Below, in pieces: positions 1 through 42,545 of a DNA stretch of 64,000 nucleotides; position 1 is the stretch's first letter; the number at the start of each line of letters is the position of its first letter. The DNA is taken from positions 17,982,001-18,046,000 of the forward strand of contig OZ076409.1 in assembly GCA_964187785.1 (NCBI GenBank). Direction: 5' to 3'. Source of the stretch: Amphiscolops sp. MND2022 (taxonomy: Eukaryota). The position numbers and the translations under genes are program-made. Below the pieces are notes generated by a model. That model was not told where the DNA came from, did no database searches, and saw only the letters and a list, made by a program, of their open reading frames with translations.

Positions 1-2354
1 TTAAATGTGTTGCTTATGCAAAGAAAGAAAGGAAAATATGCTTTCAAGGTTCCGTAAGATACCGTCGTGTTGATAGAACGGTATGGAATCATAATACATT
101 ACCGCTTCCTGTTACTCTTGATCCATTAGAATGTAAAAACATTATAGGACATTTAAATGGTACAAATGATAAAATATTGAACAACCTCCACTACAATAAA
201 ACTTTCACACTTTTAGAAGACCATTATTTTCAAGAACGATTAGAACAATATCAAACTCCTTTCACTGTATTCCAATTAAACAAAATGTACACAGGTACAT
301 TTACATTTATGCCTGCTGATAAAAACTGGATATATGACCCTACTCGAAACCCTTATCTTAACTGTCCTGCTCATCATCAATTCGAAGTCAACCTAGTTAG
401 TTGGCGATTAGAAATTTCTGAAGTCGAACTTACGTATGATGACACATCCAATGACATGATAATAGATCGACATACATTACCCTGCTATTTTGCAGATGGT
501 TTTTGTAAACTCACAACGAAAACCCCTTCGGTTCAATGATGACTATTTCCTAATTTGCACATTACAAGACTTCATTGGTCGTATGACAAAAATTGAAGAT
601 AGATACTGGATTGAAACAGACTTTTTTGTACATTCTCCACACTCAATAAAACCCAAAACAACTTTTTGTATCAAAGGTACAGAACATCCATATGTTTATG
701 CTCCTCATACACAACATCCAAATAACCCAAGTCTTTCAAGATTTGAAGTTTTTCCTACGGCACAAACTTTTTGTGGTAAACCAGACCCTCTTTATTCTAC
801 ACAATATTCAGACCTTTTTGTTACATACACTGAAAGTTTCAATATGCATACAGGACAACCCAACCCTCATTCTATGATTGATGAATATATTTCTGGTAAA
901 ACAGTATTGGACACTTCAAATAACAAATTTATATTTCCTGCATTAAATGTTTCAAACAACTTTGCTAACATTGACTATGACGCACATATAAACACCAAAA
1001 TAGATTACACTATTAACCATGTTTTCAGATCAATGACAGTACAAGAACTAAATACACTTCATACAATATGTGAATTAGAACGAAACCAACTTCTTACAAT
1101 ACTCGCAATGTCAGTACAAAATCCTCAACTTGCTGGTTTTCTTTTAACCGGTAATAGAAGTAATTTCTTGTACGTTGAAGGCTTACAAACCTGGCTCTAT
1201 GACTGCCCTCATTTTTTATCTCCTTTATATAAAGCTGATAGATGCTTTGACCGTATACCTATCCTTTTTAGAGATCCCTTAGTGTACGTTGATCCAATTA
1301 CAAGACAAACTTATGACTATGCTACAACAATTACATGTGATAATAATCAACGTAACATTATTGAACTATATCCTGATTCCGATGATCAAGATTTTTACAT
1401 TCTTGGACCTGAACCTATTAAACACAAACCTCCACTAATGTTTACACCAAAACTGAATCAAAACTACAATACGCCCTAACACTTTTACAGCTCAAGATGC
1501 TGGTATAAATTCTAATGCAGAACTCGACCAATTTTGGAATCGTATTTTATTTTCCAAACATTCTGATTCTACACTTCAATTACTAGGCAAAGCTCTTAGC
1601 TATTCTTTAATTTCATCTAATACTCCTAATTATGATGCAGATTCCCCTCAAGATTCTGGTAAACCTTATAATACATTACGTATAGGACTACATGATAAAC
1701 TCTTGAATTTAACTCCTCTTTTTACACCTACATGGTTTTCAGATGCTCTTATTGCACTTTTTGGATATCCTTGTTATATTCTCACACATTGTGGTATATA
1801 CTTTTCTACATTCCTTTTTGTACAAGCTACTCTTACACTCATTGTCAAACTTTACAAAACAATATCCATTAAATATAATCCAAAAAAATAATATTATTTT
1901 ATTTAGCTCTATCGCACATGGTTTTTTTAATGTTCTTACAGCACGAATGGTCAATGACCTCAATGAGACTCAAAACAAAAAACCCAAAAGTACACTTTTA
2001 AAAGCCAAATCCTTAGAAAATTTTATTGACACTTCAACAAATTTAATTAATCATTCTACTGATGTTACTTCCCCTCCACCTTTCTATACTAAACGTCCTA
2101 ACAAAATTCAATTTCCTAAATTTAACTTGTTTCCGAAACGACACCACAATTCTCACCAAAAAACTGCTTCACTTCCTTTCTCTCCTGTTCAACATCCTCC
2201 ATTTCCTAATTATACTCATAAAAACTTTCATCCAAATGACAATCTAACTACTCAACATGACACTTTAATTAACAATTCTGTCACCTCTATTACGGATACA
2301 CCAATTAAAATCTATTCACGGATAAACTATCCTTTTCCTCCTCCATCTTCTTGA
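1..2354 (+). pseudogene. env: Envelope-like glycoprotein, class III fusogen-like (gB/chuvirus G), frameshifted; 5' end outside window
   Basis: ORF pieces 177-539, 490-1479, 1703-1891 and 1743-2354; CELERNQLLTILAMSVQNPQLAG and LYDC...RCFDRIP...YVDPITRQ...C motifs; hydrophobic C-terminal segment followed by a P/S/T-rich tail. Confidence 0.75.
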
Positions 2355-2568
2355 ACACTCTCTCAGTTTTGTGCAAGCTCTCTTCCGGCACACTCGCCTA
2401 CTACTTCATCTTTTCACAATTGCTACTCCTCCACCACTTGAAACCCTTGCAGAAGTTCATCTTCCTCAATCCAATAACACCTCTCTCATCATAACAGTCT
2501 TCAAAAACTATTCACCTAAAGTTGATAAATCCACTCGTTAGTGACATTTAGAATACTTTAACTTTGAA

Positions 2569-3770
2569 GTGCTAAGGCCTCTTGGAATAGATAACACTGT
2601 GATTGTTGATGTTTTCCCTTTAAACACAATGACACAAGCACAACTTGACTTACAGAAACAGGCGCAACTTGATCTACAAACACAGCTTGAACAAGCAACC
2701 CCAACACATCTCATAACTAGATCTCTTTTAAATGATTCTCCCGTTCTCTATATCGAGACTTCTGAACAAACACCTCCAACTTTTCTTGAACAAATGGAAC
2801 ACACAAAAGTTGAACACGAAAATTCAAAACCTACTCTTTCACAAGATGATACTGATCATACACAAACAACACCACCTCCTCCAAAAAAGCGATATGAAAT
2901 TATGAAAGATCCAATCTTTCTTTCTTCACCAATATATCCTCCTTCAATACCTTCAAAAGTTTCACTTTGTACGAATCGTGACGATCATTTGATCCCATTT
3001 CTTTCAAATGACAATTTCGTCTTTAAAGCACAACTAACTTCCCTCTATATGCATCCTACTGATTATTCATTTCGCTTATATGACAAAAATCAAGACTTTT
3101 CACATCAATTGCCTCCAAAATAAGGGGTCCATACCAATATTGGCTTGATAACGGAGTCAAAATTTTCTCTCTACAATTCAATTTTCTCCGTCCTTCTATC
3201 TACGATCTCAAAACAGATGAATCCGATCCATCTTTCCTTTCTATTTCCCAAGAAGCTACTCATCGTCAAACGTATACTAAATTTCTACAACACACGAAAC
3301 CACAAAATCACATTTTCGTCAGTTACAAATATACATCACCGTTCACAATGACAAATATGTACACCCTTGATCACTCTTGTATAACAGGCTACCTTCGAAA
3401 CTATGACCCTATAAAACAATACTTCTGTTTGCTTCCATACAATAATACTTCAAGTCCACTTATTGTACCTCACGAATACCTCATACATTACGATGACTTT
3501 TTGTTGCCTTGCAACATTCCTACTCAAATTGTCAAACCTCTCACTGTCATTAAACACCTAGTATCTTCTCCGCTTGACGATAAAGATAGAACTTACTATA
3601 CAGCACTCTCCAAGCAAATGTATTCCTACAATGAACTCCTCTTCATTTCTGCAAAAACTATTTCTTTTATGGTACAAGCTGAACAAAAAACTGAACATAA
3701 ATCACACTCTTCACCTATAAAAAACGCTCCTGACAAACTTTCCTCTGTATTGAATAACCGAACACTATAA
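2569..3770 (+). pseudogene. Accessory ORF-a of element A, unknown function, frameshifted
   Basis: ORFs 2569-3123, 3145-3351 and 3348-3770 match 28073-29151 in C (PPPPKKRYEIMKDP, GYLRNYD..KQYFCLLPY). Confidence 0.75.
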
Positions 3771-3774
3771 TAAC

Positions 3775-3965
3775 CGATCACAACACTCACACATATACTG
3801 CACTGCTATGACAGAACACACAAACTTCTCCAGACACTCGATTTAGACTCTCAACGCATCACCCAATCATTCCAAGCAATTCAATCTGCTTTGGAAACGA
3901 TAACTACTCTTTTTAACTCAACTAATCTTCATTAAACTCTCCTACAGGTAATACAAATTTCCTAA
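3775..3965 (+). pseudogene. Accessory ORF-b remnant
   Basis: Manual translation LTHILHCYDRTHKLLQTLDLDSQRITQSFQAIQSALE is near-identical to C 27820-28010; boundaries approximate. Confidence 0.55.
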
Positions 3966-4363
3966 TTTTTCTTCTCTGGTACACCCCATGATACATCTTT
4001 GACACTATATCGAAGGTATTTACATTTTTCACCTAATTAATCCAAATAATCTCTTGCTTCCTGAATGAAATCTCAGGACAATCTTTAAAGTACATACTTC
4101 TTTCCTATAGTACATGTCAAACATAACTATTTTTATCCAAAAACTACATAAAACAATGATACAAGAAATGCAAGACGTTATAGCACAAAACTACCTATGA
4201 AACATTATAGCACCGTTTTTTAAGGTACTTCTCTTCTCTTGTCGTTGTCAAATTTCTTATACTCCGTGTGTTTTAGAAACATCCATTTTTCTTCCTCCTC
4301 CTTCCATACTCTTTCAGAACATCTCCACTTCTCCTTCTTTTTCTTCTACAGCACACTCTCGTC

Positions 4364-4816
4364 ATGGCCTCCAACGCTGAAGTAGAAGGTATCATCACAA
4401 TGACTTCCAGTCAATCAAAAGTACACAGCCTCAAAGCCGCCATTTTTCATACAATGGCTTATAAACTCTCTCTTGAAATCAACAAGAACAAAATCACACC
4501 CAAAACTATTATTGCTTTTCTCAAAGTTTTATACAATGTTGCCCAGATAAAGACAAAAAAAATCACTTTTGAACAGTACTCTCGCATTCATTTGGCTGGC
4601 CCAAAAATCGCAATTTGCGAGACTGCATTCAATGCTGTTTTCGTTTTGAATTCTGCATTTACATCAAAAGACCAATATTTCAAAACTGCCAAACAAGAAG
4701 CAATCCTAGCCTTCAATAACGTTTTCAAAGATTTTGGGTACACCCAAACCCTTGAATACTACGACCCTCAAGTGCATCAAGCCCATCCACCTCAACAACA
4801 TCCTCTATACAACTGA
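4364..4816 (+). CDS. Accessory ORF-c of element A, 150 aa, unknown function
   Basis: Intact ATG-to-stop ORF; homolog in C at 27025-27451; preceded by a pyrimidine tract and CAG acceptor-like site at 4349-4351. Confidence 0.75.
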   Translation: MASNAEVEGIITMTSSQSKVHSLKAAIFHTMAYKLSLEINKNKITPKTIIAFLKVLYNVAQIKTKKITFEQYSRIHLAGPKIAICETAFNAVFVLNSAFTSKDQYFKTAKQEAILAFNNVFKDFGYTQTLEYYDPQVHQAHPPQQHPLYN

Positions 4817-5804
4817 ACACTTTACTTACTTTGTCACTCTTCAACTACATTTCTTCTTGATTCCATCATCTTTCTTCTATGATGTTTGAGATGTAGCTGT
4901 AGATCACTCCTCCAAAAGAACTTCTCCTACACATGCTGACACTTTTCACTACACCCCACAAGATGGTCAACATCATCCATCCACACTCTGGGTTCGCAGA
5001 CGTTGCCAACATTCTTCTTGTCCTCGTCACTGGTCTTTCTGTGCGACAGCCATCTTTCTCTTTTTCAACCTGCCTCTTCACTGTTCTTTCTCTGTGGCAG
5101 TCACTACTTCGTCGACTTCTTGACTGGTCTTCACACTTCAATGGACTGCACTCTTCTCCAAATTTCAAACAATGTGATTCCAATTGAGTCAATTTTCAAA
5201 CTAAACTATATAGTCAATTTTAACTAATCTATAACCCTCAATTGTAAACATATAGTCCATCTTAACTAACTAACTTGTAACTTATTGTATTCCATTTTAA
5301 TCAAATTGTAACTCCAATACAGTGTATAATCTTAACCCCAATTTCATCGTAGTGCTATATAAAATCTTAATCTTCTATAATCGTACTATAATTACCCCCT
5401 CTGTTGCTATCCCCACAAAAATTTACCTATAATTACCTTTGTAACCGCAATATTATCCCCTTCCATTGTCTTGTGTATAGTATATTGACATAATCTTATC
5501 TAATTCCTTTGTTACATCTATAATACACTTCAAAAAAATATCTCTAATCCCCATTTTTTACAGAACATAAGTCCTACCTACAGCACAAGAAATTTTCTAA
5601 GATTTTTGGACAAAAATGTTTTCTTTTACAAAACATGTTCTACACCTTTGTTTTACTTCCCAAAAGCAATCCCTAAAAATTTTCAAAATTTTTCTTTTGA
5701 ACTTTTTCAAACTGTAACTTCTCGTTTTTCAATGTTTGAAACTTGCAATTGCCACAGTTCTTTTCTTTCTTCAACTTTTTGCTTCTGCTGTACTCTTCAC
5801 TTTC

Positions 5805-6005
5805 GTTGAAAATGAACTCTCACTAGAACCTTGACTATTCGAAACTTCTTCACTTTTGGTTCACATACCCGCCAATGTTGGTTCACAACTCATTGACAAC
5901 TTCACGCTTTAATTCTTCAACTTGAAAAGTTTTCAATGCTGACTAACTCATGTTGATGACAATTTTTTCAAACAAGCCGATGCCTGGTACGAAAAAGAAA
6001 CATGA
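5805..6005 (+). pseudogene. Accessory ORF-e remnant
   Basis: VENELSLEP*LFETSS...SQLIDNF aligns codon-wise with VENELYFEPRLFKSSS...SQLIDNF in C (~25985-26185); in-frame stops in A. Confidence 0.5.
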
Positions 6006-6291
6006 AACATTAAATAGTTGTCAACAATAACTTGACCGAAAACTGTCAGTCAAAGAAACTGAAAGAACTTGAACCTTTTGCACCAATTGAATCGTCTATG
6101 ACGTAAGAAGTCAAATCGTCTTAGGTTGTTCTCACTCCTTAAGTATGGTACACTACAGAACGAAACTCATGCAACACATGCATAACACATATGAAACAAA
6201 CCTATGCATATAACATCTGAAACAAAAACTTTTAGAACTTCTCAAACACAAAGTGCATATATGTAATTTTATTTTTAAATTCCCGGTTGAT

Positions 6292-6704
6292 TGTGATGCC
6301 ATGATGCATGTCCTCAAAGATTCTATAAATCTGAAATACTCTGAACTCCTAACCAAAGTAATTAGTAAATGTAATCTCATTTGAAAGCTAATTATTGTAG
6401 AAGAAACTTCACTTAATATATCCTGTAACAATCTTCTTAGATTCATCCTGATGCTGTCACATTATTAATTGATGAAACCTACCCTAGTTAATAGAATATA
6501 TCTACTCGGAGAAAATGAGAATTCATCCTGACGATCAGTCTTCTCTCCAGCACTTCAAGAACTGAGATCTCAGAAATAGATTGTACTTAGAGCTAGCTAG
6601 CTGCAAGGTATAAAGTAAGACGACCCTGCTGTTAAAATCATAGACTTCTTATGTCAGTAATAAAACATCTAAAAGAAATAACACACACGCTTTTTAACAG
6701 CTCA
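6292..6704 (+). repeat. 3' LTR of element A (413 bp)
   Basis: Begins TGTGATGCC and ends TTTTAACAGCTCA, the same termini as the C LTRs read on the minus strand. Confidence 0.85.
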
Positions 6705-7167: not shown

Positions 7168-9229
7168 TGTTGGAACTAACGTTGACTGAGTTGCCGATGG
7201 GTTCGGAGTTCCCTATTGATTCAGGCTCGATATCATGTCGTAGAACTGAACCTGAAGGTTCAGTGGCGGAATTTGAAAGACCATCTACTTTCGAGGCTAG
7301 ATTTTCGATTAATTTCAAAATTTCTCTTTGTCCAAATTCTGCGTCTCTTAGTCTTTTGGACCGTCGATTTTCAATCTTGTTTGAAATATCTGAGAAGTCT
7401 TGTTCAGTCAAGCAAGTATTTTCATCAGAAGCCTGGCTTGTAGACTCGACATTTTCCAAACTACTACTTGGGTCACTCCTAAGTTTCCTTTTCTGAGATT
7501 TCTCGGGCATCGTCGAAAAGTTTAGTTGATCAAACAGGTTAATTCGACTGGTTTAACTGGTGGTTGAACAAATCAAGAGTTTCCAGAACAAGCTTGTTCC
7601 AATGCAAAGATACAGTCTCAAATCCAAAGAAAACGTTCGCAAGCAAATAAAAGAGTACAATCAATAATTGAAAACTCAAAATTCAAAGTTTTGGGAATTA
7701 CAAATCAAGGTTGAGCTTTCGCGAAATCAAAATAACACTGTCCTTTTCCTTTTCCCACTTCAGGTATTTATACTTTGCGCTAGACACGCGGGATAAATCC
7801 CGCGCGTGAATTCACACTTCGTTCAGCTCGGCGTCCTTCCGAGGCAAGAAAATCCAAGTCAGGTACGCTTCCTCGGGACTCGGCTTTCGGCTTCATCTCA
7901 CTTCAAAGGAAAAGTGGGAATCAACTTCCTGCCGAAGTCCCAATTCCGCGTACCTTTCTTCTTCATCTCCCGCCAATTCAAGACGCCGAACCGAAGTTAG
8001 CACTGAAATTCATGAACCTAGCTACTGAAGCGGGAAAAGGAAATGAAGTTTACATCGAAGAAAATGAAACTCTAAATAAAATAAAACTGCACTAAATTAA
8101 GAAAAATGGGAATTCGGGCATTATTATTCTCATCAACTGAACACAAAATGATCAATTTGGGTGGATTAATTCGTTGGTTAAAGTTCTGGTCGAATGCCAG
8201 GGCGGAGTGTTAAACTGAAATTTTCCGGAACACTTGACCGGATATTGAACATCATTAATCAACACAGTGGGGGGGGGGTTTAACGCAACTTTAATGGCTT
8301 TAGTGAGTATTATATGCCATTCAATCAATAAACGTTCATAACAAATTAATAATCAGCACTTGTCACAATGTAATTAATCTTTCATTCGTTCTCAACTAAG
8401 CAGTTGCCCCGGCGGTCGACCCGGGGTGGGGCTCTACCAACACAGTAATATTTGAATAAAAATACTACAAAACGAACGAAATATTGCTCTGGTGGGGGAA
8501 TCAGGACAAATTAACAATATTATCCATGTTACACTAATGATTAATGCACAGTAATATCAACTATATTTGATCGGTTGTCCCGGTGGTTGTCCCATTTGGA
8601 AAGTAGAGTTGGGTGACCAGGCGGTTGACCTAAATAATAAAACAAATACTTTCATCCTTTAGACCCTTCATTATTTCCATCGGTTATTTATTTGTGGTTT
8701 GAGCTTCTTTTAAGCTCTGTGATCACGATAGAATAGCACAACATGTTATACAGTAATACTATTGCTTCAGTTGTTTCAAGCGTGCGACCAGGCGTGCGAC
8801 CCAGCACTCGGTCGACTGGTGAGCTGCCTGGTATTGCTGTTCAGCTAGCGCGGTGAATTTGCGCTAATCGCTGATTGGTCCGATGAAATTGGAATGAAAT
8901 TTAATCTGCTTTAGCTCCATTGTTATTGTAGCGGTAAATTGATCAGCGTGTTGGCTGAGTTAATTTCGGTCAATATGCTGGTCGCTTTACTGTAAACAAA
9001 TCACACTAATAGCACTTTAATAATATTTAAGTATTTACATATTTATGTATTTTAGGTACTGCGCTGGGTTAATAATGTTTGTTGGATAGTTTAGATGGGT
9101 TGTTTGTTAATTGTTTCTTTCAAGGTGAATGATGTTCTTATTCGGTCCCTTTCTGGTTGATTTCTCTATTTCCTTCCTCTGGCGTTCTCCTTGTATTCGT
9201 TATTTCGCTGCTCCTAGAGGGCTGCGACA
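7168..9229 (-). repeat. 3' LTR of element B (2062 bp), carries a copy of the gag 5' end
   Basis: Direct repeat of 20794-22854. Confidence 0.97.
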
Positions 9230-9773
9230 GTCCCCTGCTTTGGTGAGGGACGTCCACTATGGGAGGTAATGGAGAAATTGGCCTGAAAGGCGACGATATT
9301 GGCGGAAGAAATACCGATTGTACCATTGAATCGTAAGATAGCCAGGACGAATCGGTTGACCAGTCACTTCCTGAGAAGTAACCTATCGAACTAGAGTTAC
9401 TGGAGATGGGGCTGATTGTCCCATCGTGCGGCCCGTATAGCCAATTGTCCATGTTCTCGTAGTTTCTAGGGGGGCTCGTGAATTCGTCATCCGGGATGAT
9501 CGGGTTGGAGTTGACAAATTTCCTGTATGGTAATGTGTCCGATTGGGCCGTTGCTAATATAGATATTGGTGCCGACTCATGATAAAGGACAATATGTTCC
9601 GTCCCAGTGTTAATAATCTCGTAAATATCCTCAATTATTGGTGTTTGAGTATTTTCGCATTTATCACCATGCACCTTAGGTGTTGATTGTGCACAGGGGT
9701 TTACTGGGGCAGCGTCTTGGTCGCGGTCCAAAATGAAATAATCGGTTGAGGAATTGAGTGTCGATGAATTCAT
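9138..9773 (-). CDS. Element B sense-strand 3' ORF, 211 aa, S/P/D-rich, crosses the PPT and ends inside the 3' LTR
   Basis: Intact ORF with ATG; an ORF occupies the equivalent position in element D. Confidence 0.55.
   Translation of the reverse strand: MNSSTLNSSTDYFILDRDQDAAPVNPCAQSTPKVHGDKCENTQTPIIEDIYEIINTGTEHIVLYHESAPISILATAQSDTLPYRKFVNSNPIIPDDEFTSPPRNYENMDNWLYGPHDGTISPISSNSSSIGYFSGSDWSTDSSWLSYDSMVQSVFLPPISSPFRPISPLPPIVDVPHQSRGLSQPSRSSEITNTRRTPEEGNREINQKGTE
9230..9241 (-). other. Polypurine tract of element B
   Basis: AAAGCAGGGGAC immediately before the 3' LTR on the minus strand. Confidence 0.7.
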
Positions 9774-10054
9774 TTGATCCGATGAGTAAATAAATTGTAT
9801 GCAATAAATAGTAATACTTGTAAGTAATGCTGAGCGGCTGTTCTGCGGAATGGTCGAGTAATTGAATGATAATTCCGTTCTTTTCTTTTGTTCACGCCGC
9901 TTGCATGAATGGGAAAGTTTTCAGCTGGCAGACTGAATGACTTCCATTACGTCATACTAATAATATTGTATAGTAGTAATCTCGTTGGTTTTACGCCACG
10001 TCTTCGTATTGGTATTATTGTGTTGACATTTTTAGATTGATTTGCTTGCAAACG

Positions 10055-13000
10055 ATGTCAAATTCGACTGACGAAGATGATCAACGACTGTTACAGGCAG
10101 GAAAGATTGGAGTTATGGAGAGCGAGGGTGAAGCAGTGTTAGGAGGAGGGGAAGTCGCGAGTGGTCTGGATGAAGGGAATGGGGAGGAATCGCAATTGAT
10201 TATTGCTGAGACAACTGATGAGGCTGTCACTGGAGATTCTCCTGTTGAGTTGGAAGTTCCGGTGTCTTGTGGTGGGCGTGGATTTGGAGAAAAAGATGAT
10301 GACAGCGACTCTGATAAATCTGGGTCTAGTCTGAGTGAAGTTGGTGTTCCCCGCGGCGATACCGGTGACGATGATGATGATGATGATGGAGGAAATTCTG
10401 TGCATTCAGCATCTAGTGACGCCCGCCATGAATTGGACTATTTGCATGATTTAAAGGGTGAGTTCCTTAGCGAATTGTTAGTGGCCAGCTAACTTTTCAT
10501 GCTAGTATACAGACGCGTCGTTTCATCCAACTTGTCTGTGTTTTAGGCTTGTCTGACGATTCTCATGATGAGGATTATGTTCCTGGGTCTTCTGTTCGCG
10601 TGTCAGCTACTGTGGAACGTGTCCGTCGCGAAGTGTCCTTCGTTGAAGGCAGTCCCGTGAAGCGTGGTCGTTGGTCCTGTTCTGGGACACCTGCCAGGGA
10701 AACTGCTACTGCTGCACCTAATGTAGAGACTAGTGGTGGGTAAATCTTCTCCTTTGTTATCACATGTCATTTGTCCATACTTTGTATATTTTTGATTATA
10801 GTCGTTTCCTCACCATTTGGGATGCATACGTCTGCGGGGGTTCATTCGACGGACTCTGAAGGTGTTTTGCCAGTGACGGGGGGCTTTGCTTTCAGCGAGG
10901 AGCCTGGGTGTAGTGATCAGCCTAAGCGGGGGCGGACCCAGCATGCTCGTCTTGCCGAAGGCCTGGAGCGCTCTGTGATCCACAATGAATGGGCTAAAGG
11001 TGATTATAGTTTTGTTGTTGGGTTATTAGTGGTTGTTATTTTGGTCTGTCCTTCGTTTTTGTTTTTTTTTGTTTTTGCCGTATGCAGTCTGTCTGAACTG
11101 TGTTCACCCATGATCTTCTTTTTAGCTGGGTTGAAGGATGTGCCAGAAGGTGCTGTGTGTATGTCGGCATCACAGGTTTTGGCTTTCGGCCAGGCAGCTG
11201 TTCGATTGGAGCGGACCCAGAGTCGTGTGGAGGATCGTTCATTGTCGCGCCGTTAGTATTGCACTCTTATGGCTCATTTCCAGCATCAGTAGTTATCATC
11301 TTTATACTCCGTGTATTTCTTGATTCGATGATAGTTGATTGGAGAGGGGCGGGATAGTAGGTTTCGGGGTGACTTGGTAATGAGTGTTTGTATTTCTGTT
11401 TGTAAGTCTGGACGAAATCATGCGCCTGCTCAAGCAAAAAGGGATCCAACTGCATCGAGTCCGTGGGCATTTGAACGCTGAGGAGGAGACCAAGAGCAAA
11501 TTGTTTGCGAAGTACGAGAGAAGGAAAAAACGGCAAAGCGAGCGTCATGTTCTTCGCAGAGAGATGGCTACACATGCGATTCCTCGGCTCTTTGTTAGCC
11601 GAAGGACTGATAAGAACCCAAACGGGTTCAATTGTGCGATTTGCCGTAAAGATGTTTCGTTTCTGTCGCGTGGGGAGCTGGAAATCTGGAGGCATTTCGG
11701 TCGCAAAACTCATTTCGCAAAGGACCGACGATATCGGCTTGACCATGAAGATTGCATCTACACAGAGAAGTTTGATGAGATTGCTGTTGCCACCATATCA
11801 CCAGAGTTGCGTGCTGAAATTGAGCTGACGCCCCCTGTTGTTCTTGGACCAAAGAATGCGTTCGAGGAGGATGAGGTGGACGCTCTTGTGGGCGTAGTTT
11901 CCAATGTGCCTTGCTCAACCTTGGTTGGGGGTTTGTTTGAATTGTTGCGGAGTGGCGGGTCCCACAGCTTCCTTAGACGTTTGTGGAGTCAGTTCAGGAC
12001 GACCATCCCCGTGGAGACCAGCTATGCCCAGGCCACCTGGAGTAAAACTGAGTCATTTGTTATTTTGTGTCAGACATTGTATCCCCGAATTTTGCGTCGG
12101 GTGCAATCTGGTTGTAAGCTGTCTGACTTCAGTATTTCTTTCCGGCGTGACGATAGTGGGGTGCAGTGTTATGTCCACTTCTTTGCTAGCGATGTCGTCC
12201 GCGAGGTTTGTGTGCTGTGGGAAGAAGTCTCTCCTGGGCTGTGCGATGCGGAGATCAAGTGCTTGACCCGCGTCCTCGCGATTCTCCCAATTGATCAGTC
12301 TCCAGTTGCTGTCCGGGGCTGTCCTTCGACGCTGTTCAATGTGTTTTCTTCGTGGTGCAAGGACGAAGGGCGACCGGTGCCACTGCCTGTGCTGGAGTAT
12401 ACCCCTGATGTCTTTAGAGAGCAAATTCGTGAAGCTGGCTTAGTTGGTGCAAACTTGTTGGATCCATTTGCTATTTTGGACTATTTGCTATTGCGCTTGG
12501 TTAGAGCCGTCCACCAGCCTTGGTTAGAGTCTCTGCCGACTTTTCGTGTGTGTATAAGCCAGCGCCAGGTGCCGTTTCCTTCTTTGCGTGCTGCTATCTC
12601 AGAGTTGATACATCATTGGGCCGATGTGACACTATTCTTGAAAGAGACGGGGACTGTTCTTCCTTCAAAGGGCAAGGCTCCTCTTGACGTTGGTCAGCTC
12701 ATTGTGTCGGATACCCTAGTGTTGCCCCGATTGAGTGTCTTGCATGTTCTTGTTGCGTGCTTCGAGGCCAACTTTGTGAAGCAGTTTGATGAATCAGTGA
12801 CTGACTACACCTGTCGTAATTATTCCGATTTCTGCTATTTTTATTGGAGTTTGCTCGGCAAAGTCAAGAAGTTGAGTAGTCTGCCTGAGATCGAGGCTTG
12901 GAGCCAGTACATCGGTCGTCCCTTGACTACGTGGGCTAATATCCCTTTCGTCGAGTGTCTTCGTGGTGAGCCCCTTGTGACCGTGGCCTTATCAGCTTGT

Positions 13001-13996
13001 GGAGATACTGTTCGGCGGCCTTTCCTCCGTGAGTGCCATGGGTTTCTTTCGGAATTCTTGAAGGTGTTAAATCAGTCGGCATATGCGAAGTCTGTCCTGT
13101 CCTCAAATCTGAGCTGCTTTTCGCCTGATATGATGTTGTTGGGCGATGAATCTTACGCAGTTCAATTGTTCAAAGATTTGACGACTTGTCTTCTTGACTG
13201 TGGGCGGTTGGCGTCGTTGGATTGTGAGGCGGCCAGTAATGAGTTCAAATCTCTACTTGTGGAGTTACGGCGTCGGAATCGGCGTGTTGTGTCGTCGATC
13301 AAGGACAGTTTTGTATTCTTGCGGGATTCCGGACTTCTAGACTGCCGGCTGAATTTGGATAAGGTGGTACAAATTGCTGCAATGGCGATGGTTCCGCGGT
13401 GTGTCAATTATCCTGTCGTGGATATGTCCTTGAGTGGAGCTTTGGTGCCGAAAAAGATCCTGTTGTCTTCGATATTTGCTTGTCAGTCATATGTGACATT
13501 CAGGAAGTTTGCCTCCGGAGAGTTGTTGACCAGGGACTGTCTAGAAGAACTGAAAACCAATTTGCCGAACGGGAAGGGTTTCATGGAGGACGCTTCGTTT
13601 ACACCGTGGAGGCCGTTGTATGCTCATACCCGCTGTGATATGTATCGAAGATTGCGAGATGCTTTCGATGCATACTATCTGGATCAAGTATCGGAATGGC
13701 GTCGACGAGCTGGATTGGGCTTGTATGCCGCGACCGCGTCTCCTGATAAATTGTTACCCGAGTTGCAATTCTCGCATGCTGCATCTGTTGTTGAGGAGAA
13801 TGTTGGGACTTCTTCCGCCGTTAATACTCCCCCTTCAGTGAAGTCTGTCGGCAAAACGGTCAAGCAGGCGGGTGGTTCTGGCAGTATTGCGGAGATCGTC
13901 AAGATGAAGAAAGATCTTCGGCAAAGTGGTGTGTCTGGGTCGTCGTCTGGTAAAGGCAGTTCTAGTGGGTCAGTGAAACGTGGATCCGGGCGATGA
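10055..13996 (+). CDS. Antisense spliced gene in element B: acidic N-terminus, BED-like zinc finger, hAT-transposase-like body
   Basis: Frame-consistent exons 10055-10457, 10547-10735, 10802-10999 and 11126-11251 with GT..AG introns; long open exon ~11400-13996 containing CAIC-x(16)-H-x(5)-H; junction between exon 4 and the long exon unresolved; homologous to 50731-54643. Confidence 0.8.
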
Positions 13997-14336
13997 AACA
14001 CATTGTAGCAAATTTGGATCAAACTTTAGATTTAGTTGTATTTGTACTGCTATATGTTGTATTTCTGTTGTTATTGGTCCGAAAGGTCCATCAGTATGTC
14101 GATTTACCATAGTAAGCAAACACAGACAAAATTGTCTGAAAATTGAATCGCCACTTTGTGGGAAAAAAAGGGGTTTGTTAACAAACCCGGCAAGTAAAAC
14201 AGTACAGGGAGTTCTTGAATTTATTTCTTTGCCCTTCGAATTTGTTTTCTCGTGAGTTTAGGTTGAGTCGTAGGGGTGATTAAGTAGTTTGTAATAGGGT
14301 AAATGAGACGATGATCCTTCCAGTTAGTTGGGAGTT

Positions 14337-17300
14337 TTAGTCTGTCGCGTTGGGTTCAGCATTTATCGGATTATAATAAGCATAATCCTTCTTCCAATTT
14401 GATGGAGGGTTTGCCCTTAAGTTGTATTTGTTTTTTCGGGGAGAACTCGGGGTTGGGGTATCATTTTCAGTGGCATCAGGATCGGCGTTTAGCGTGGCAT
14501 TTCCTGGGTGTTCGTTTGGGTTAGGTTCCAGGGGAAAATCTCCTGGGTCATTCGTTGGGTTGTCCGTTTGGGTAGGTAGATCTTCGTGTGACTCTGGAAT
14601 TGTTATTGTGGGTTCTGTTTGAAATGGGGGTGTCGTTGAGGTGTACTCATCGAAATTGGACTGCCATGCCTGCGCGTATAGGTCGTCGTGGAAGACGTCT
14701 ACTTCCTTGTCTGGGGTGTAATCTTTGGGCAAGACAGGTTTGTCCGGGAGCGATTTGTCGGTAGGGCATGGTTTCAAGCGAATCCTGTGTAGGATTTGTG
14801 TATAGTTTGTCTGTAGTTTCCGTATTAGGTAATTGTTGTTGGGGAGCACTTTGACAATAATATAGGGCCCTGTCCAGAGGTATTCTTTGAATGGGAGTTT
14901 GGTTCCCTGGGTATTCGCTTTTGGGTGTAAGGCGTAACAGTATTCGTTGACATTGAGGGGGTGGGCGTTTGCTTTTTTGTCGTAATACTGTTTGTATCGC
15001 ACGTATGACTGCATTAAGTTTTTGTTCACCGCCTCCTTGATTTGCTGTGTTTTGTGTAGAATGTCTTCTCCCATGTTCGTCGTCGTAGTTGTAGGTCGTT
15101 GGTTTCGTATGCCAAATTTGAGGTCCAACACGTTATATGGGATCCTCCCGTGGAACACTCGGCTGGGTTCACACCCTAAGGCGGAGTGGTACGATGTGTT
15201 GTAATTCAGCGTGGCGATGGCTACGTATTGATGCCACATCGTCCGGCGCTCTCCTGTCGAGATTTTCAGCGATTCTTTCAGAGAGGCGTGGCTTCTTTCT
15301 AAAATTCCGATGGTTTGGGCATGTTTAGTGGTAGCATGACGGAGATGTATGCCCAGGGTTCTCGTCGCGTCTGCCATTACCTCAGACATAAACTGAGTGC
15401 CCTTGTCGGTGATGACTGTAGTAGGGAGGTAGGCGTGACGGGTCATGATGTCGACCAAAACTCGGGCTACTGTGGGGGCGTCCGTTTTGACGACATAGTA
15501 GGTGAAGAGGTAGCGCGAGTAGACGTCCATTGCAGTGACAATCGCGTTATAGCCACCGGAAGGCTCATCAAACGGGACGATGTCCATTTGAAGTGCATCT
15601 TCTGGGCCTAGGGCCAGTTTGGAAGTGTCGATCATTGGTGGTGTAATGGATCGTTTGTCCGTTCGTTTGGTCTGCATGCAGTCGGTACACCTGGAGATGT
15701 GGTGTGCTATTCTGGCTGCCATGCCTGGGTAGTAATATTTCTCTCTGCATTGCTGTATTACCTTGGCTATTCCGGGGTGTTTATTGGCTTGGCCATGGTG
15801 CGCTAGGATGAAGGAGTCAACCAAATGTGCAGGTAACAGGATTTGCAGGAATTTGACCTTTCCTGCGTGGTCGTAATACTCTCGGTATAACAGTCCGTCC
15901 TTTAGGATTATTCGGTTGGCTTGTGCGCTGTATTTGGCTGCTCGGGGGTCGGTTGCCAAGAGTTGTTCATTGTGAGGTTCCTTGAGCAAGCGGAGTTTGT
16001 AATTTCGCAGGACATTGTCTTGGTCCTGTTGTTGCCTCATGGTCTTCGACGGACCGTCGTGTTCGTCGGTAGCTTTGGGTGGTCCTTGGGTTACGAGTAT
16101 TTCCGTTTGAAATATGGTAACTTCTTGGTCATTGTTTGGTGTTTTGGGATTGGTTTCGTCGGGGCCAGGTTCTTTATTGTTGTCATCGGCAATTTTCTTT
16201 CGTGCACGGAGCTTGCGCTCCCATATTTGTTCTTCAGTTTCCGTGTCATCATCAGGCATGAAGAAAAATTGTTCTTCTTCCGCGACATCGGATGACTGGA
16301 TGTTGACCTGGATCGGTGTTGTTCGTATGTCATCTCTTATTGTGAGGTGGACCTTGTCTTTTGGATGAAGGTCGAGGCGGGACAGGAAGTCCGCGGGAGT
16401 GTTCATTTTGCCCGGCACATGAGCAATGGTGAAGTGAAACTGAAGAACAAAATCGCAGGCATTCCAGAGGGCCGGGGGTATGATTTTGGTTTGAAAGAAA
16501 CGTGTCACTGATTTATTGTCGGTGAGGACGACAACCGGTTTGGTTGATTCCCAAAGAATGTGGCTATACTCCATGAAAGCGAAGTATATTGCCAGAAATT
16601 CTTTCGCGTAGATCGACATTTTAATTTGTGACGGGGAAAACATTTTTGACCCGAATGCCACTGGTGCGTAGGTTTTTCGGACTGAGCTGATTTTTTCTTC
16701 GGGGTTTTCTTCGATCATGAGGGCATAACCTGCATTTTTGAAGTTGGCGTCGGTCATGAGTACGTATTGTCTGTTAGGCATAGGTTGTTTGAGCCACAAA
16801 CCACAGGCATTGTCCAAGGATTTGTTGATGTTGGTGAAGGAGTTCATGATCTCGTTTGTGATCTTGATGGGCTTTTCAGCCTTGATGAGCTCGTGGAAAG
16901 GGGCTATCTTTTCGGAAAGCCTGGGAATGTAATTCCGGTAGTAGTTGACGAAGCCAATGTAGCGCTGGAGACCCTTTTTGGTTTTTGGGAAGGTCAGTTT
17001 TTGTAGGTAGTTGTGGATCTTCTGATCTTGGGGGGCAATTCCTTCTGGTGACACTGTTCGTCCAAGGAATTGGACTTCCTTGGCACCGAACTGGCATTTG
17101 GCCATTGTCAAACGCAGGCCTGCTTCGCGTACGCACTGGAAGACCTCACGCAGGTTGGTCTTCAGCTCCTCGGCGTTGTGGGTGGCAATCCCGATGTCGT
17201 CAACGTACTGAGCGCATTTGTCAGCCTTGATGACTCGATCGAGATATTCTCTCATGAAGCTCGAGAAGGAGGAGAGGGACCTGCTGAGCCCTTGTGCGAG

Positions 17301-19754
17301 TCGGAGGTATGCGAATGTTCGACTGGCGAAATTGAAAGCTAGGAGTTCGACCGACTTTTTGTCTGCCATTTGCAAGACGTGATAAGCCTGGGAGCAGTCT
17401 AGCTTGCAGAATAGCTTTTTCCCTGCGAGGTGTTGGGCAGCGTCTGAGAGGGTGCTGACCGGGTGGTTGTTATTTGTGTAGTCGTCCGCTATCAAATTGT
17501 TGATCTTTCGGAGGTCGACTAGCAGTCTGAGGCGTCCGTTTGGTTTTCTCTGGGCAAATATGGGACTTGCATATTTGCTAAACGGTAGCGTGGTAATGAT
17601 GCCGTAGTAGTGCATCAATGCCAGTTCTACTGTAAGATCTTCTTTGAGATTCACTGGGCAGGGTAGGCTCTGCGTGTAGGCCGGCTGATCGTTTTTCGGG
17701 GTCAGTTTTATTTTGAAGTCGTGGTTGACGCCTATGTCCAGGCGGTGACGGGCGAAGACGTCATGGTATTCAACCAGAATGTTCTCTTTGTCAGCTCGGT
17801 CTTGGCTGTTCAATTGGGAGTCCTCCCATTTAAAATTCTCGAGGAATTTTTGTCTGCTTTGAGGGCTTGTTGTTGGGTCGAGTTTTTGGATTTCCTCTAG
17901 TTCTTCGATTTCTCGGAGGATCCTTCTCTGGACGGGGGTGTGGGTTGATGGGTCCCCCGGATTGTCTGGAGTTGGGAACCAGAACTGTTGGGTGGTCTCA
18001 GGTTTTTCTGTGGTTTTTAAGAGTTCGTTTACGTACTCTAGCGCCTGTTCTGAGTCGTCCTCTGTTAGGATTTTGAGCGCGGCGATGGGGATGGGTTTGA
18101 TGTTCTTCGCTTCGTTGGGCGTTGTAATGTGAAATTCAGCTACCACTGTGTTCTTTTTGATGGTAAATGGGGTAGGTGAGGTGTTCGTGATCCGGATGGG
18201 TATTTTCATTTCGTGGACTGTGGATAGTGAGCTGGCGATCACTATTTGTTTGTCTTCAGAATAGTTTGGGAGTGGGTGGATGACGCCCGTAGTGTCTGCT
18301 ATAGCCCTTATGTTGACTAGGGCTTCGATTGTGATGCATTGGTCAGGGGCCAGTGTCGTTTGGTTGGGGATGGACACCTTGTGTGGTTTCGCTGGTTGTT
18401 CTTCGGACACTGGGTTTATTGCGTAGGTTAGATGAGGGAAGTGGAGAAGTCCCTGGCTTGCGTCGAGGATGGCGCTGTTGGTTTTGAGAAAGGTGAGGCC
18501 GAGAATGGGGCCATTGATTTTGCTGGCTACTATGAATGTCTCTTTGAACGTCCAGTCGCCGATTTCAAACTGCACTTGGATAGTCTTGATCGGGGTTTCA
18601 ATGTCGCCATTTGCGACTTGTAGTTTGAACGGCGGTGGGTCAGATTCTTGTAGGAGATTATTGGGGCTCATGGTTTTGAGTTTTTGGTACTCTTGTTCGG
18701 GCATGCAATTGACCAAGGCCCCGGAGTCAATGAGGGCGTCAATGGAAAAATGTTGGAAATCCATCGGTGCGAATAGCATGCGTCTTTTCTGTTTGAGAGC
18801 AATTGCTGAGAATATTGGGAGGCATCGTTCTCCCGTTGGATTGTTTGTGGAGGTGATGTTGACTAGCTGGTCTTCATCCAGTTGTATCAGTGGGTTATTG
18901 TTATCTTGTTGGGTATCTACCGGTTTGGGGTTTGGGTGCGGATTTTGATTGAATTCGCATGTCAGTGCTCGTTTGATCCGCCTCGTCTTTGGGGCTGTAT
19001 TAGCGTTGGTTGTATTTGCAGGATTGTCGGAAGGGTCCCCTTCTTTGTGTGTAGTTGTCGTGCCTGTAGTTGAGTTTGTTGGGTGGACGGAGCTGTCCTT
19101 TATTGGGAATTCAGGGCTTTGGGGAGATGATGGCGATGACGTCATTGCAGCCCGGATTTCATTTGTGTGTGCCGGAACTCTTGTGGGTGACCCGTATTCG
19201 GTCGAATTGGTGATTTGTGGTTTGAGGATTGGTCTCAGAGAAATCGTAGGGGGTGTGACGATAACTTGTATTTCCTCGTTTTGTTCTTCGGCGTGTTGTA
19301 CGGGTGAGTGACTGAGGTTGCCATCATCTTTCCGCTTTGTGGTGTCCAGATTCATGTTTGTTTTCTTGGCGAATGCGTGGAAGGGTACATTGATCATCTC
19401 TTTGAAGGTTAGGGTAGTTTGGTCGTATAGGTCAGGGTTGTGGTAGGGGTCACAGTCGTAGTCTGGGTCGAGTATGTAGGTGAGAGGAGTTGAACTGGGA
19501 GGGAGAGGGCGTCGGGTTGTATTGTAGAGTTGAGGGTTTTCTTGGTACCATTCTGGATATTGCAATTTGTCAACGGTGGATTTGTTGAACTTGATGAGGC
19601 GCCGTATGAGCCATCTCCGCTGCCAGTCGGTAGATGGTTCACCGGAACACTCTGCGAACATCTCTAAATCGTGGTCCTTCGGGGGTTCGGATGTTGTGTA
19701 AAATCGGTAATCGATATAATCCCCGAAGCGAAGACGTGGCTTTAGGAGTTTTTT
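14337..19754 (-). CDS. pol: Pol polyprotein of element B (protease, RT, RNase H, integrase), reached by -1 frameshift
   Basis: LIDSGA, QYVDD, LMTDA...KEFLAI...LTDN, HHCC zinc finger, MDIV...TDKG...E catalytic core, WTGPY; frame is open from the slippery site through ORF 14337-19661. Confidence 0.97.
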   Translation of the reverse strand, partial: KKLLKPRLRFGDYIDYRFYTTSEPPKDHDLEMFAECSGEPSTDWQRRWLIRRLIKFNKSTVDKLQYPEWYQENPQLYNTTRRPLPPSSTPLTYILDPDYDCDPYHNPDLYDQTTLTFKEMINVPFHAFAKKTNMNLDTTKRKDDGNLSHSPVQHAEEQNEEIQVIVTPPTISLRPILKPQITNSTEYGSPTRVPAHTNEIRAAMTSSPSSPQSPEFPIKDSSVHPTNSTTGTTTTHKEGDPSDNPANTTNANTAPKTRRIKRALTCEFNQNPHPNPKPVDTQQDNNNPLIQLDEDQLVNITSTNNPTGERCLPIFSAIALKQKRRMLFAPMDFQHFSIDALIDSGALVNCMPEQEYQKLKTMSPNNLLQESDPPPFKLQVANGDIETPIKTIQVQFEIGDWTFKETFIVASKINGPILGLTFLKTNSAILDASQGLLHFPHLTYAINPVSEEQPAKPHKVSIPNQTTLAPDQCITIEALVNIRAIADTTGVIHPLPNYSEDKQIVIASSLSTVHEMKIPIRITNTSPTPFTIKKNTVVAEFHITTPNEAKNIKPIPIAALKILTEDDSEQALEYVNELLKTTEKPETTQQFWFPTPDNPGDPSTHTPVQRRILREIEELEEIQKLDPTTSPQSRQKFLENFKWEDSQLNSQDRADKENILVEYHDVFARHRLDIGVNHDFKIKLTPKNDQPAYTQSLPCPVNLKEDLTVELALMHYYGIITTLPFSKYASPIFAQRKPNGRLRLLVDLRKINNLIADDYTNNNHPVSTLSDAAQHLAGKKLFCKLDCSQAYHVLQMADKKSVELLAFNFASRTFAYLRLAQGLSRSLSSFSSFMREYLDRVIKADKCAQYVDDIGIATHNAEELKTNLREVFQCVREAGLRLTMAKCQFGAKEVQFLGRTVSPEGIAPQDQKIHNYLQKLTFPKTKKGLQRYIGFVNYYRNYIPRLSEKIAPFHELIKAEKPIKITNEIMNSFTNINKSLDNACGLWLKQPMPNRQYVLMTDANFKNAGYALMIEENPEEKISSVRKTYAPVAFGSKMFSPSQIKMSIYAKEFLAIYFAFMEYSHILWESTKPVVVLTDNKSVTRFFQTKIIPPALWNACDFVLQFHFTIAHVPGKMNTPADFLSRLDLHPKDKVHLTIRDDIRTTPIQVNIQSSDVAEEEQFFFMPDDDTETEEQIWERKLRARKKIADDNNKEPGPDETNPKTPNNDQEVTIFQTEILVTQGPPKATDEHDGPSKTMRQQQDQDNVLRNYKLRLLKEPHNEQLLATDPRAAKYSAQANRIILKDGLLYREYYDHAGKVKFLQILLPAHLVDSFILAHHGQANKHPGIAKVIQQCREKYYYPGMAARIAHHISRCTDCMQTKRTDKRSITPPMIDTSKLALGPEDALQMDIVPFDEPSGGYNAIVTAMDVYSRYLFTYYVVKTDAPTVARVLVDIMTRHAYLPTTVITDKGTQFMSEVMADATRTLGIHLRHATTKHAQTIGILERSHASLKESLKISTGERRTMWHQYVAIATLNYNTSYHSALGCEPSRVFHGRIPYNVLDLKFGIRNQRPTTTTTNMGEDILHKTQQIKEAVNKNLMQSYVRYKQYYDKKANAHPLNVNEYCYALHPKANTQGTKLPFKEYLWTGPYIIVKVLPNNNYLIRKLQTNYTQILHRIRLKPCPTDKSLPDKPVLPKDYTPDKEVDVFHDDLYAQAWQSNFDEYTSTTPPFQTEPTITIPESHEDLPTQTDNPTNDPGDFPLEPNPNEHPGNATLNADPDATENDTPTPSSPRKNKYNLRANPPSNWKKDYAYYNPINAEPNATD

Positions 19755-21136
19755 GACTCCATTTCTGGTGGTGCCATGGTTTGTGGCTGCTGCATCGGGA
19801 TCGTTTGTGGGTTTTGTGTGATGGGAATATTATTGGGGGGCGTTGTTTTAGGTGTTTTCCACCATGAGGGGCGGTTTGCCCAATTCGCTCCAGAGAAGCA
19901 GTCTTTCGTTTCGTGGCTCATTTTGCCACATGTCTCGCAGGGAGTGGATTGAGTTGGAGCGTTTGTTTTTTGGGATCGTTTGTCCCGATTGGTTTTCCTG
20001 CAGTTTCGTAGGAGGTGACCTGGGTTGCCGCACCCAAAGCATGGTCCCGTTGTTCTGGGGGGATTGTTTTGTTGCTGTTGTTGTGAACTGGGTTCGATGT
20101 TGTGGACTCCTGTGATTGAAAGGCTGTCGTTGGTAGCGAGTCCATTGAGTTCGATTTCTCGTTCCAAGTGCTGTACCATTGTCTCGTACGATTCTGTTTC
20201 TAGTCTTGCCTGGTTTAGGACCTTCTTGAGGTGTGGTGGCATTTTTGCATAGAAGGATGTTTCTATGAATCGGGGGGCGTCCTCTCCATAGGCTTCTTGT
20301 GCTAGTTTTTGGTATTGCTCCAAGAAGTCTGGGAAGGTTTGTTGGCTTGGGTTAAATGACAGATTTTCCCATTTGCACCGTACAGTTGCCACTGACTGCT
20401 GTCGGACGTATCTCCTGCGGAAGCCTGCCAGGATGTCATTCAGGTGTTCGCGTGTTGCTTCCGTCATGTTCCTGAATGTTTGTAACGCTTCGCCTCTCAG
20501 GAGGGAGTGAAAGTAATGGATCTTTTCTTCTTCAGTGATGTTCGGGTATACTTTGAGGCTTGTCTGGAAAAGGTCCTCAAAGTGCTCGAACTTGTCCGTT
20601 TTCCCGTCGAAAGTCGGCATCGTAGTGGACATGGCTTTTGGTAGCCTGGGGACGCCTGAGTTGTTTGTTGTTGCCGTTTGCAGCGATTGTAACAGTTTAT
20701 CAATGATGTCATCGGGGTACCTCTGGTTTGGAGGTGGCAGACTTGATGATCGTTGATGATTTTCTTGATGGTTCGCAGAGACTCCTGTCACCATGTTGGA
20801 ACTAACGTTCACTGAGTTGCCGATGGGTTCGGAGTTCCCTATTGATTCAGGCTCGATATCATGTCGTAGAACTGAACCTGAAGGTTCAGTGGCGGATTTT
20901 GAAAGACCATCTACTTTCGAGGCTAGATTTTCGATTAATTTCAAAATTTCTCTTTGTCCAAATTCTGCGTCTCTTAGTCTTTTGGACAGTCGATTTTCAA
21001 TCTTGTTTGAAATATCTGCGAAGTCTTGTTCAGTCAAGCAAGTATTTTCATCAGAAGCCTGGCTTGTAGACTCGACATTTTCCAAACTACTACTTGGGTC
21101 ACTCCTAAGTTTCCTTTTCTGAGATTTCTCGGGCAT
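19742..21136 (-). CDS. gag: Gag of element B, 464 aa, two CCHC knuckles; starts within the 5' LTR
   Basis: PTFDGK...FEDLF capsid-like region; CFGCGNPGHLLRNC and CETCGKMSHETKDC. Confidence 0.93.
   Translation of the reverse strand: MPEKSQKRKLRSDPSSSLENVESTSQASDENTCLTEQDFADISNKIENRLSKRLRDAEFGQREILKLIENLASKVDGLSKSATEPSGSVLRHDIEPESIGNSEPIGNSVNVSSNMVTGVSANHQENHQRSSSLPPPNQRYPDDIIDKLLQSLQTATTNNSGVPRLPKAMSTTMPTFDGKTDKFEHFEDLFQTSLKVYPNITEEEKIHYFHSLLRGEALQTFRNMTEATREHLNDILAGFRRRYVRQQSVATVRCKWENLSFNPSQQTFPDFLEQYQKLAQEAYGEDAPRFIETSFYAKMPPHLKKVLNQARLETESYETMVQHLEREIELNGLATNDSLSITGVHNIEPSSQQQQQNNPPRTTGPCFGCGNPGHLLRNCRKTNRDKRSQKTNAPTQSTPCETCGKMSHETKDCFSGANWANRPSWWKTPKTTPPNNIPITQNPQTIPMQQPQTMAPPEMESKNS
19748..19754 (-). 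promoter_or_regulatory. -1 ribosomal frameshift heptamer A AAA AAC (element B)
   Basis: Lies at the gag end; the -1 frame is continuous with pol; same heptamer in D at 59985-59991. Confidence 0.85.
20781..20793 (-). other. Primer binding site of element B (tRNA-Leu-like), inside the gag ORF
   Basis: TGGTGACAGGAGT directly after the LTR-terminal CA; first 12 nt identical in D; tRNA identity inferred. Confidence 0.8.
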
Positions 21137-25283: not shown

Positions 25284-25725
25284 TGAGCTGTTAAAAATTT
25301 GTGATATAGTTCTTTTTAGGTCTTTCATGTAGTACGTAAGAAGTCTTACATTCTTAACAGCAAGTTCGTCTAGAGTATCAAGTTTACTGAATAGCTAGCT
25401 ACTTCTAATGTCTATGAGATCTCAGCTGGATACTTAGAAACCGTTTCTCAGTTAATACTCTAATTTTCTCCCAGTAGATATAGTCTACAAATTAGTCAAT
25501 GATTACAATTAGTTATATTGTCATGCTAATAGATTAATAGTGACAACAGTAAGAAGGGTAGGATAGAGTAACCATTACATTGTCACAAGTCATAAGTTAG
25601 GTTATGTCCAAATGTCAGAAGCATAGTCAACTTCAGTTGACTAGAAATGAAATGACATCTATCTCTTTGAATTAGGTTATTTCGAGGTATTTAAAAGTTT
25701 TTAAGACATGTATCATGGCATCACA
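25284..25725 (-). repeat. 3' LTR of element C (442 bp)
   Basis: Direct repeat of 42546-42999 with a 12-bp indel and scattered substitutions. Confidence 0.95.
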
Positions 25726-25984
25726 ATCAACCGGGAATTTTTGAAAATAAAATTCATTCATCTGCACTTTGGAAGTGTGGAGTTCTGAAGTGTTTTTGTC
25801 TTGCATGAAATTTTGTTCTAGAAAAGCACTGTACTTAAGGAGCGAGAACAACCTAAGACGATTTGACATCTTACATAAGTGACGATTCAAATTGGTGCTA
25901 AAGTTTCAGTTTTCTTAACTGACAGTTGCGTTCAAGTTATTGATTGACAACTTGTTCACTAGTTTATGTGATATATTAGTTTTG

Positions 25985-28010: not shown

Positions 28011-28072
28011 CAGAGGGATTGCGTTAGTATGGGTCCAAAAAAGTGTGTGATATCTTTAAATAGTACGATTAT

Positions 28073-33150: not shown

Positions 33151-33188
33151 TGGTCGACTAGTTTTCGTTGGGTTAGCAGAGCGAAGGG

Positions 33189-38325: not shown

Positions 38326-38329
38326 ATGT

Positions 38330-42543: not shown

Positions 42544-42545
42544 AT

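Follow-up and report, generated by a model that had tools for sequence, protein, structure and literature searches.

Introduction

Retroelements with envelopes of the herpesvirus gB type have been cataloged by Chary and Hayashi (eLife 2026; PMC13524379), whose survey of 1512 env-bearing Ty3/gypsy elements includes 221 with an HSV/gB-type env, from cnidarians, ctenophores, tunicates, nematodes, flatworms, bryozoans, rotifers, and arthropods, and also reports 114 gypsy elements that carry the chuvirus-like glycoprotein known from mosquito BEL/Pao elements. Its authors argue for an ancient origin of the association between gB-type env and gypsy, with occasional exchange between elements. The same source cites Drosophila gypsy as a precedent for fusion into neighboring germ-line cells and describes the transmission route as unknown for most such elements. 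An earlier survey (PMC10084718) reported no gypsy capture in insects.

Two other kinds of retroelement are relevant for comparison. The Anakin BEL/Pao elements of mosquitoes carry a PF24664-type chuvirus-like glycoprotein with a recognizable chuvirus donor (Dezordi et al. 2020, PMC7642597; 2023, PMC10084718). Accessory ORFs are found in the foamy-like fish ERVs, which reach 17 kb, and in planarian Burro, and extra ORFs beside env are known in general (PMC6431247); in Cer1, env is replaced by CERV, a nuclear protein with a coiled coil that serves the export of genomic RNA (PMC10309623).

Here, we describe two related elements, A and C, in a 64,000-nucleotide stretch of the Amphiscolops sp. MND2022 genome (the whole stretch is referred to below as the window). 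We consider it probable (roughly 0.85) that both derive from a high-copy Ty3/gypsy lineage with the layout LTR-PBS-gag-pol-ORFx-env-ORF4-ORF5-LTR, i.e., in Chary and Hayashi's broad usage, an errantivirus whose env is of the HSV/gB type, with the intact env, pol, and ORF4 being separate database proteins that are linked only through the broken element C. Like the gB-type errantiviruses of PMC13524379, the lineage has a Ty3/gypsy pol, the order gag-pol-env, LTRs with a tRNA primer site, and multiple copies, and its env likewise combines a gB-like fold with a leader, a membrane anchor, and no clear furin site. The union of gypsy with a gB-type env is already published across metazoans; the new part is a high-copy lineage on a long branch, in which env is flanked by three extra ORFs. 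Xenacoelomorpha does not appear in the group list of PMC13524379 and acoels are absent from its seven supplements, although a related clade may already be included in its trees and cysteine classes. Our literature search, which addressed acoel env-bearing elements and ORFs downstream of env, found no paper on this lineage.

Results

Element C is a complete but broken 17.7-kb LTR element

Element C occupies positions 25284-42999 on the minus strand (17,716 bp). Its 5' LTR (42546-42999) and 3' LTR (25284-25725) are 91.9% alike over 459 columns, both end in TG...CA, and the same four bases lie at both ends of the element as a 4-bp target-site duplication (25280-25283 and 43000-43003). The primer binding site (PBS; 42534-42543, minus strand) lies 2 nt past the 5' LTR and starts with TGG; its first 7 nt pair with 3' ends labeled tRNA-Gly in a table of PMC13524379, and the assignment to tRNA-Gly is tentative. 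A polypurine tract is absent in front of the 3' LTR in both C and A. At this site, both elements instead share one non-purine 14-mer, the core of which is a short palindrome (25726-25739, minus strand, in C; 6278-6291, plus strand, in A). We read the missing tract as an atypical plus-strand primer and do not take it as excluding Ty3/gypsy membership. The sense strand of the element is G-poor (11% G).

The gag core of element C (38400-39556, minus strand), detected in translation by PF03732 (E 1.2e-9), comprises a capsid-like domain, one CCHC knuckle, and an Arg/Ser-rich stretch, and broken ORFs reaching to about 41300 may belong to gag as an extension. It is followed on the same strand by a broken pol (33198-38400; PF00078, PF17917, PF17919, and PF00665), mapped to the natural protein P0285, in which protease (PR; LDSG), reverse transcriptase (RT; YIDD), RNase H (RH), and integrase (IN; H2C2, core, and SH3-like end) follow one another. 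Between pol and env lies a broken, Ser/Pro-rich ORF (32045-32710), here termed ORF-x, which has 50-76% identity to the natural proteins P0093 and P0028 and no Pfam match. The remaining genes, all broken, are env (29380-31950, its start extrapolated from the natural protein P0001), ORF4 (27847-29154, located by tblastn with P0356 and P0018), and ORF5 (27028-27411, with 66% nucleotide identity to 4415-4810 of element A). The gene order is thus gag, PR, RT, RH, IN, ORF-x, env, ORF4, ORF5.

This anatomy departs from the described gB-type elements in several respects. In PMC13524379, a survey whose search windows limit size, 16 of the first 30 rows of the 221 gB-type elements have LTR coordinates, and these measure 9.3-13.0 kb, against 17.7 kb for element C. 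About 1.25 kb separate pol from env, unlike in those elements, and there are three extra ORFs around env, none of which was found by word search to be described in the main text of that paper.

Elements A and C represent different subfamilies of one lineage

Element A is the 3' part of a C-related element with its own 3' LTR, its 5' side lying outside the window. In a self-comparison of the window, positions 1-6700 (plus strand) were homologous to 31608-25279 of C (minus strand) at 64-77% identity. The A env (1-2354, plus strand) is spread over four frames, with its 5' part beyond the window, and is 88-94% identical in four pieces to residues 116-901 of P0001. It is followed by a broken ORF4 (2569-3935, plus strand; 84-86% identical to P0356), an ORF5 of about 150 aa (4367-4816, plus strand) that was taken from the ORF list and is conserved in C, and the 3' LTR (6292-6704, plus strand), which has TG...CA ends as in C and 67-74% identity in two blocks. 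Relative to P0001, the A env has three frame changes; the C env has four frame changes and three stops, and lacks about 210 nt relative to A. A and C are dead copies from different subfamilies of one large high-copy lineage.

In front of the 3' LTR, a non-coding-looking stretch is 70% conserved between A (5600-6150, plus strand) and C (25820-26460, minus strand). Candidate explanations are a structured RNA signal and an additional small ORF.

The pol of the lineage is of the Ty3/gypsy type

The natural protein P0285 (1878 aa) shares 83% identity with C over the RNase H region and belongs to a cluster of 1183 members. It contains RVT_1, RT_RNaseH, RT_RNaseH_2, Integrase_H2C2, and rve domains and an SH3-like end, and a further natural relative, P0283, has gag and pol in a single frame. 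The Pfam set is of the gypsy type, with PF17917, PF17919, PF17921, and PF24626 in pol and PF03732 in gag. In contrast, no BEL/Pao family, such as Peptidase_A17, DUF1758, or DUF1759, was detected at E<=0.5 in P0285, P0283, or P0308, nor was any found in the ORFs of C. Among solved structures, P0285 matched the Ty3 Gag-Pol best (E 3.3e-48) and the Ty3 RT next, with retroviral RTs scoring far lower. An RT-RH tree was built from 31 of 32 rows, one being dropped for short overlap; all were gypsy-like, with no elements from PMC13524379, and the tree bears on relationships among gypsy-like sequences and not on the split from BEL/Pao. In this tree, the family and a sister pair formed one long branch with 100/100 support. 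Named gypsy proteins were 25-32% identical to the lineage over the RT-RH region. Element C is of the Ty3/gypsy type and not BEL/Pao, as an earlier note on this DNA had proposed; the PR-RT-RH-IN order that it had given for the elements in general was seen in C, but element A has no pol inside the window.

Other elements in the window

The window also holds a young 15.7-kb LTR element, B (7168-22856, minus strand), with 2064-bp LTRs that are 99.4% alike and an open gypsy-type pol of 1830 aa whose RT-RH forms a long isolated branch. Its gag matches DUF1759 (E 2.9e-6), a family typical of BEL/Pao elements, and also weakly PF03732 and Ty3_capsid. Element D (54930-62650, minus strand) is a decayed relative of B; its gag likewise matches DUF1759, and its protease and RT are separated by a dUTPase-like domain whose match to PF00692 (E 2.3e-4) falls slightly short of the cut-off. 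Two stretches that are 94% alike (47178-48691 and 61115-62650) may be its LTRs. A region at 11384-13996 (plus strand) has a weak relative at 52048-52491 (25.5%, E 2.4e-5), which sits downstream of and antisense to element D and is followed by a 429-aa ORF (53354-54643). At 44539-45976 (minus strand), two short ORFs resemble fibronectin type III exons of a host gene, with no Pfam match above cut-off. Searches for tRNA genes and Rfam families likewise gave no match.

Env is predicted to have a class III, gB-like fold

The motifs that had earlier been read as a class III envelope are all present. In A, one ORF (466-1479, frame +1) encodes CELER...L...NPQLAGFLLTG, WLYDC, CFDRIPI, YVDPITR, and the Cys motifs that follow, and two others (1457-1891 and 1713-2354) encode the hydrophobic segment and tail; in C, minus-strand sequence near 31760 encodes an HYDC motif. 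Env sequence does occupy 490-1900, the extent originally assigned to it, but the gene covers all of 1-2354 and starts upstream of the window. PF24664 (Monjiviricetes_fusion) was matched above its curated cut-off in A (E 6.6e-14) and C (E 2e-7), these being 2 of the 42 ORFs scanned.

A search with env recovered 22 proteins out of 726 candidates, all of them unnamed and 18 of them at 54-90% identity. Among the members listed for four large clusters, 21 of 60 were 850-930 aa long, and in one cluster 9 of the 15 listed members were full length; many cluster members are fragments, and these, together with some proteins from the pol-env intergenic ORF, are counted in the cluster sizes, which are not to be equated with copy numbers. 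Cysteines of Env are kept across subfamilies. Two rearranged natural records were also seen: P0018 has the N-terminal half of Env fused in frame to the ORF4 core, the fusogen core being missing, and P0055 has a tandem partial env duplication in one frame.

The fold was modeled on the natural record P0001 (901 aa, 90% identical) as a monomer from a 73-row alignment, with a mean pLDDT of 69.3 and a pTM of 0.49. In the model, a beta-rich N-terminal half is followed by a central helix of 45 residues (444-488), a second, membrane-like helix at about 707-748, and a tail that is disordered. The gB-like fold is predicted to lie between a hydrophobic leader at the N-terminus and a membrane anchor toward the C-terminus. 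The hydrophobicity of the anchor is moderate (mean hydropathy 1.76 and 1.56, and below 1.5 in P0015). Foldseek against the PDB placed herpes gB first (E 1.7e-12; 110 matches at E<=0.001), and against viral models it placed chu-like and xinmovirus G proteins first (E 4.4e-29). In an unfiltered search of 48,161 chains, gB took ranks 1-6 (Z 9.1, rmsd 16.1 over 434), with rhabdovirus G and Bourbon virus GP ranking below it. Domain IV of gB was matched with a Z of 8.9 (rmsd 3.6 over 156), and matches to gB domain II and the PH fold fell at 92-404 of the model. The model agrees in this with the gB-like architecture of class III fusogens, in which an elongated fusion domain is set into a PH-like domain and accompanied by a long central helix and a beta crown. 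Superposition of the whole chain on gB was poor (TM-score about 0.2-0.36, rmsd 16-50), and given this and the pTM, it is topology and the matches of single domains that carry the fold call. Searches of solved structures by sequence found no gB with env (three chance matches, and none with a profile), indicating that the link to gB is visible only by Pfam and by fold. Since Pfam and two fold programs agree as three independent lines, we accept for the modeled Env a class III fold of the gB/chuvirus-G type, as the earlier note had suggested. The G proteins of Jingchuvirales and Xinmoviridae and herpesvirus gB thus share fold, domain order, and PF24664 with the predicted Env, but they are only 10-16% identical to it, and the Env described here has a disordered tail of 150 residues and is encoded by a retroelement.

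ORF4 and ORF5 have no assigned family

ORF4 encodes a protein of 430-470 aa. A search with its core recovered 77 proteins out of 1544 candidates, all unnamed, mostly 395-560 aa long, and 36-100% identical, and its clusters have 1036, 705, and 502 members. The protein has no hydrophobic segment. Near residue 96 there is a basic motif, of the form K-K/R-K/R-Y in 5 of the 9 sequences read, which resembles a nuclear signal, and the C-terminal part contains a coiled coil. No Pfam match above cut-off was obtained with any of seven ORF4 proteins, and there was no Atlas match. Matches in the PDB were to coiled coils only, and the viral library gave nothing at E<=0.001; as the model is poor (pLDDT 43), however, the lack of a fold match does not show a new fold. 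ORF5 likewise had no Atlas or Pfam match.

Our best guess from these features, at clearly less than even odds, is that ORF4 acts as an oligomeric accessory protein, soluble and probably located in the nucleus, with a role in regulating the RNA of the element or countering host silencing. Any likeness between CERV and ORF4 is by analogy only; CERV replaces env in Cer1, whereas the extra ORFs here come in addition to it.

env, ORF4, and ORF5 have evolved under purifying selection

Comparison of A with C, which are separated by about one synonymous change per site, gave a dN/dS of 0.147 for env, ectodomain included (701 codons, 95% bootstrap interval 0.115-0.191), 0.159 for ORF4 (405 codons, bootstrap interval 0.113-0.22), and 0.11 for ORF5 (131 codons, 0.057-0.246, with dS near saturation). 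Shifted frames of the same alignments gave 1.16-2.34. These results indicate that all three genes were protein-coding and constrained while the subfamilies diverged. The subfamilies form deep tiers, at 60-89% for env, 68-94% for RT-RH, and 36-99% for ORF4. That the lineage is potentially infectious is a reasonable inference from the selection on env, both copies in the window being dead.

Discussion

By comparison with gypsy elements, the full-length RNA of this lineage would be expected to build Gag-Pol particles and to be reverse transcribed from a tRNA primer, and by comparison with class III fusogens, Env would trimerize in the budding membrane and fuse with a neighboring cell. Transfer would most likely run from somatic cells to the germ line of the same animal, where the integrase would insert the element with a 4-bp duplication. 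In this reading, Env is an old cargo of the lineage and not a fresh capture.

The PR-RT-RH-IN order is identical in BEL/Pao elements, and Anakin is a precedent for a chuvirus glycoprotein on such a backbone, which the earlier note, in keeping with the state of knowledge in PMC10084718, had regarded as the main recipient of such captures. That generalization is not borne out by the 221 gypsy elements with gB-type env in PMC13524379, and for the elements themselves, the gypsy families in gag and pol, the failure to find any BEL/Pao family in P0285, P0283, P0308, or the ORFs of C, and Ty3 as the best structural match of pol leave a BEL/Pao identity with next to no probability; in contrast with Anakin, the backbone here is gypsy and there is no close viral donor. 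It has also been proposed that the lineage captured its env independently, in this case by taking up the G gene of a chu-like or xinmo-like negative-strand RNA virus that is as yet unsampled. Chu-like and xinmovirus G proteins are indeed the best structural neighbors in the viral library, and the RT-RH branch is long and isolated. A profile search with env returned 3149 relatives at E<=0.001, and the nearest are unnamed proteins of 600-1100 aa in which PF24664 was the only Pfam domain (24 of 24 scanned); some of these lie on contigs of 10-13 kb, a size that fits virus genomes and whole retroelements alike. However, identity between Env and the best-matching named G proteins of viruses is no more than 12-16%, below the 22-35% that Env shares with the 25 long, unnamed relatives compared, and no donor is thereby identified. 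Env subfamilies have diverged to 60%, so that any capture must be old, and the occurrence of gB-type env with gypsy pol in many phyla led the authors of PMC13524379 to argue for an ancient origin. We therefore consider an independent capture unlikely. The far relatives could be envs of errantiviruses or else G proteins encoded by unsampled viruses. An env tree, obtained from a quick and unfinished search, has weak deep support and contains no named rows, and scans of viral contigs and metagenome contigs for the genomic context of the relatives yielded nothing; one candidate locus was rejected because the match, which fell in a different frame of an unrelated gene, was due to chance.

Whether all of the genes located after pol and before the 3' LTR serve the element in the manner outlined above is a separate matter. 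ORF4 and ORF5 have no homology to known retroelement genes, as would be the case if they were an unrelated insertion or host DNA, but in both A and C, despite the divergence of the two, they are found at the same place between env and the 3' LTR and on the same strand, they share the G-poor strand bias of the rest of the element, and ORF4 forms clusters of over a thousand and several hundred members. An origin outside the element is consequently very improbable. It is also conceivable, if rather improbable, that env has been retained for some role outside infection, for instance in budding within the cell, in transfer between cells, or in interfering with related elements, or that the lineage spreads mostly without it. 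Both copies in the window are dead, many cluster members are fragments, and the env-ORF4 fusion in P0018, without the fusogen core, implies that env-deleted variants exist. Against this stand the low dN/dS of about 0.15 across the whole gene, including the ectodomain, the conservation of cysteines across subfamilies, and the full-length members that make up 9 of the 15 listed in one cluster. We accordingly favor the reading of A and C as remnants of an errantivirus-like gypsy lineage with a gB-type env and genes of its own around it.

This reading can be carried further, into an account that we regard as doubtful. The lineage could be a "complex" invertebrate retrovirus-like lineage, in which a class III env and fixed accessory genes of unknown fold have been kept through deep subfamily splits and in hundreds to thousands of copies, in a host group outside the survey; on this account, ORF4 would represent a regulator or silencing suppressor of a new class, and an unsampled RNA virus could have been the source of env in a separate, old capture.

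With the elements in the window, the known pattern of gypsy elements with a gB-type env gains a further lineage. As a lineage without a close named relative, and maybe from outside the surveyed groups, it would provide a test of whether gB-type env and gypsy have been associated since early animals. Accessory genes under purifying selection similar to that on env point to a life cycle more complex than gag-pol-env, and ORF4, which is abundant, conserved, and without an assigned family, is a target for the study of element self-regulation or the evasion of silencing.
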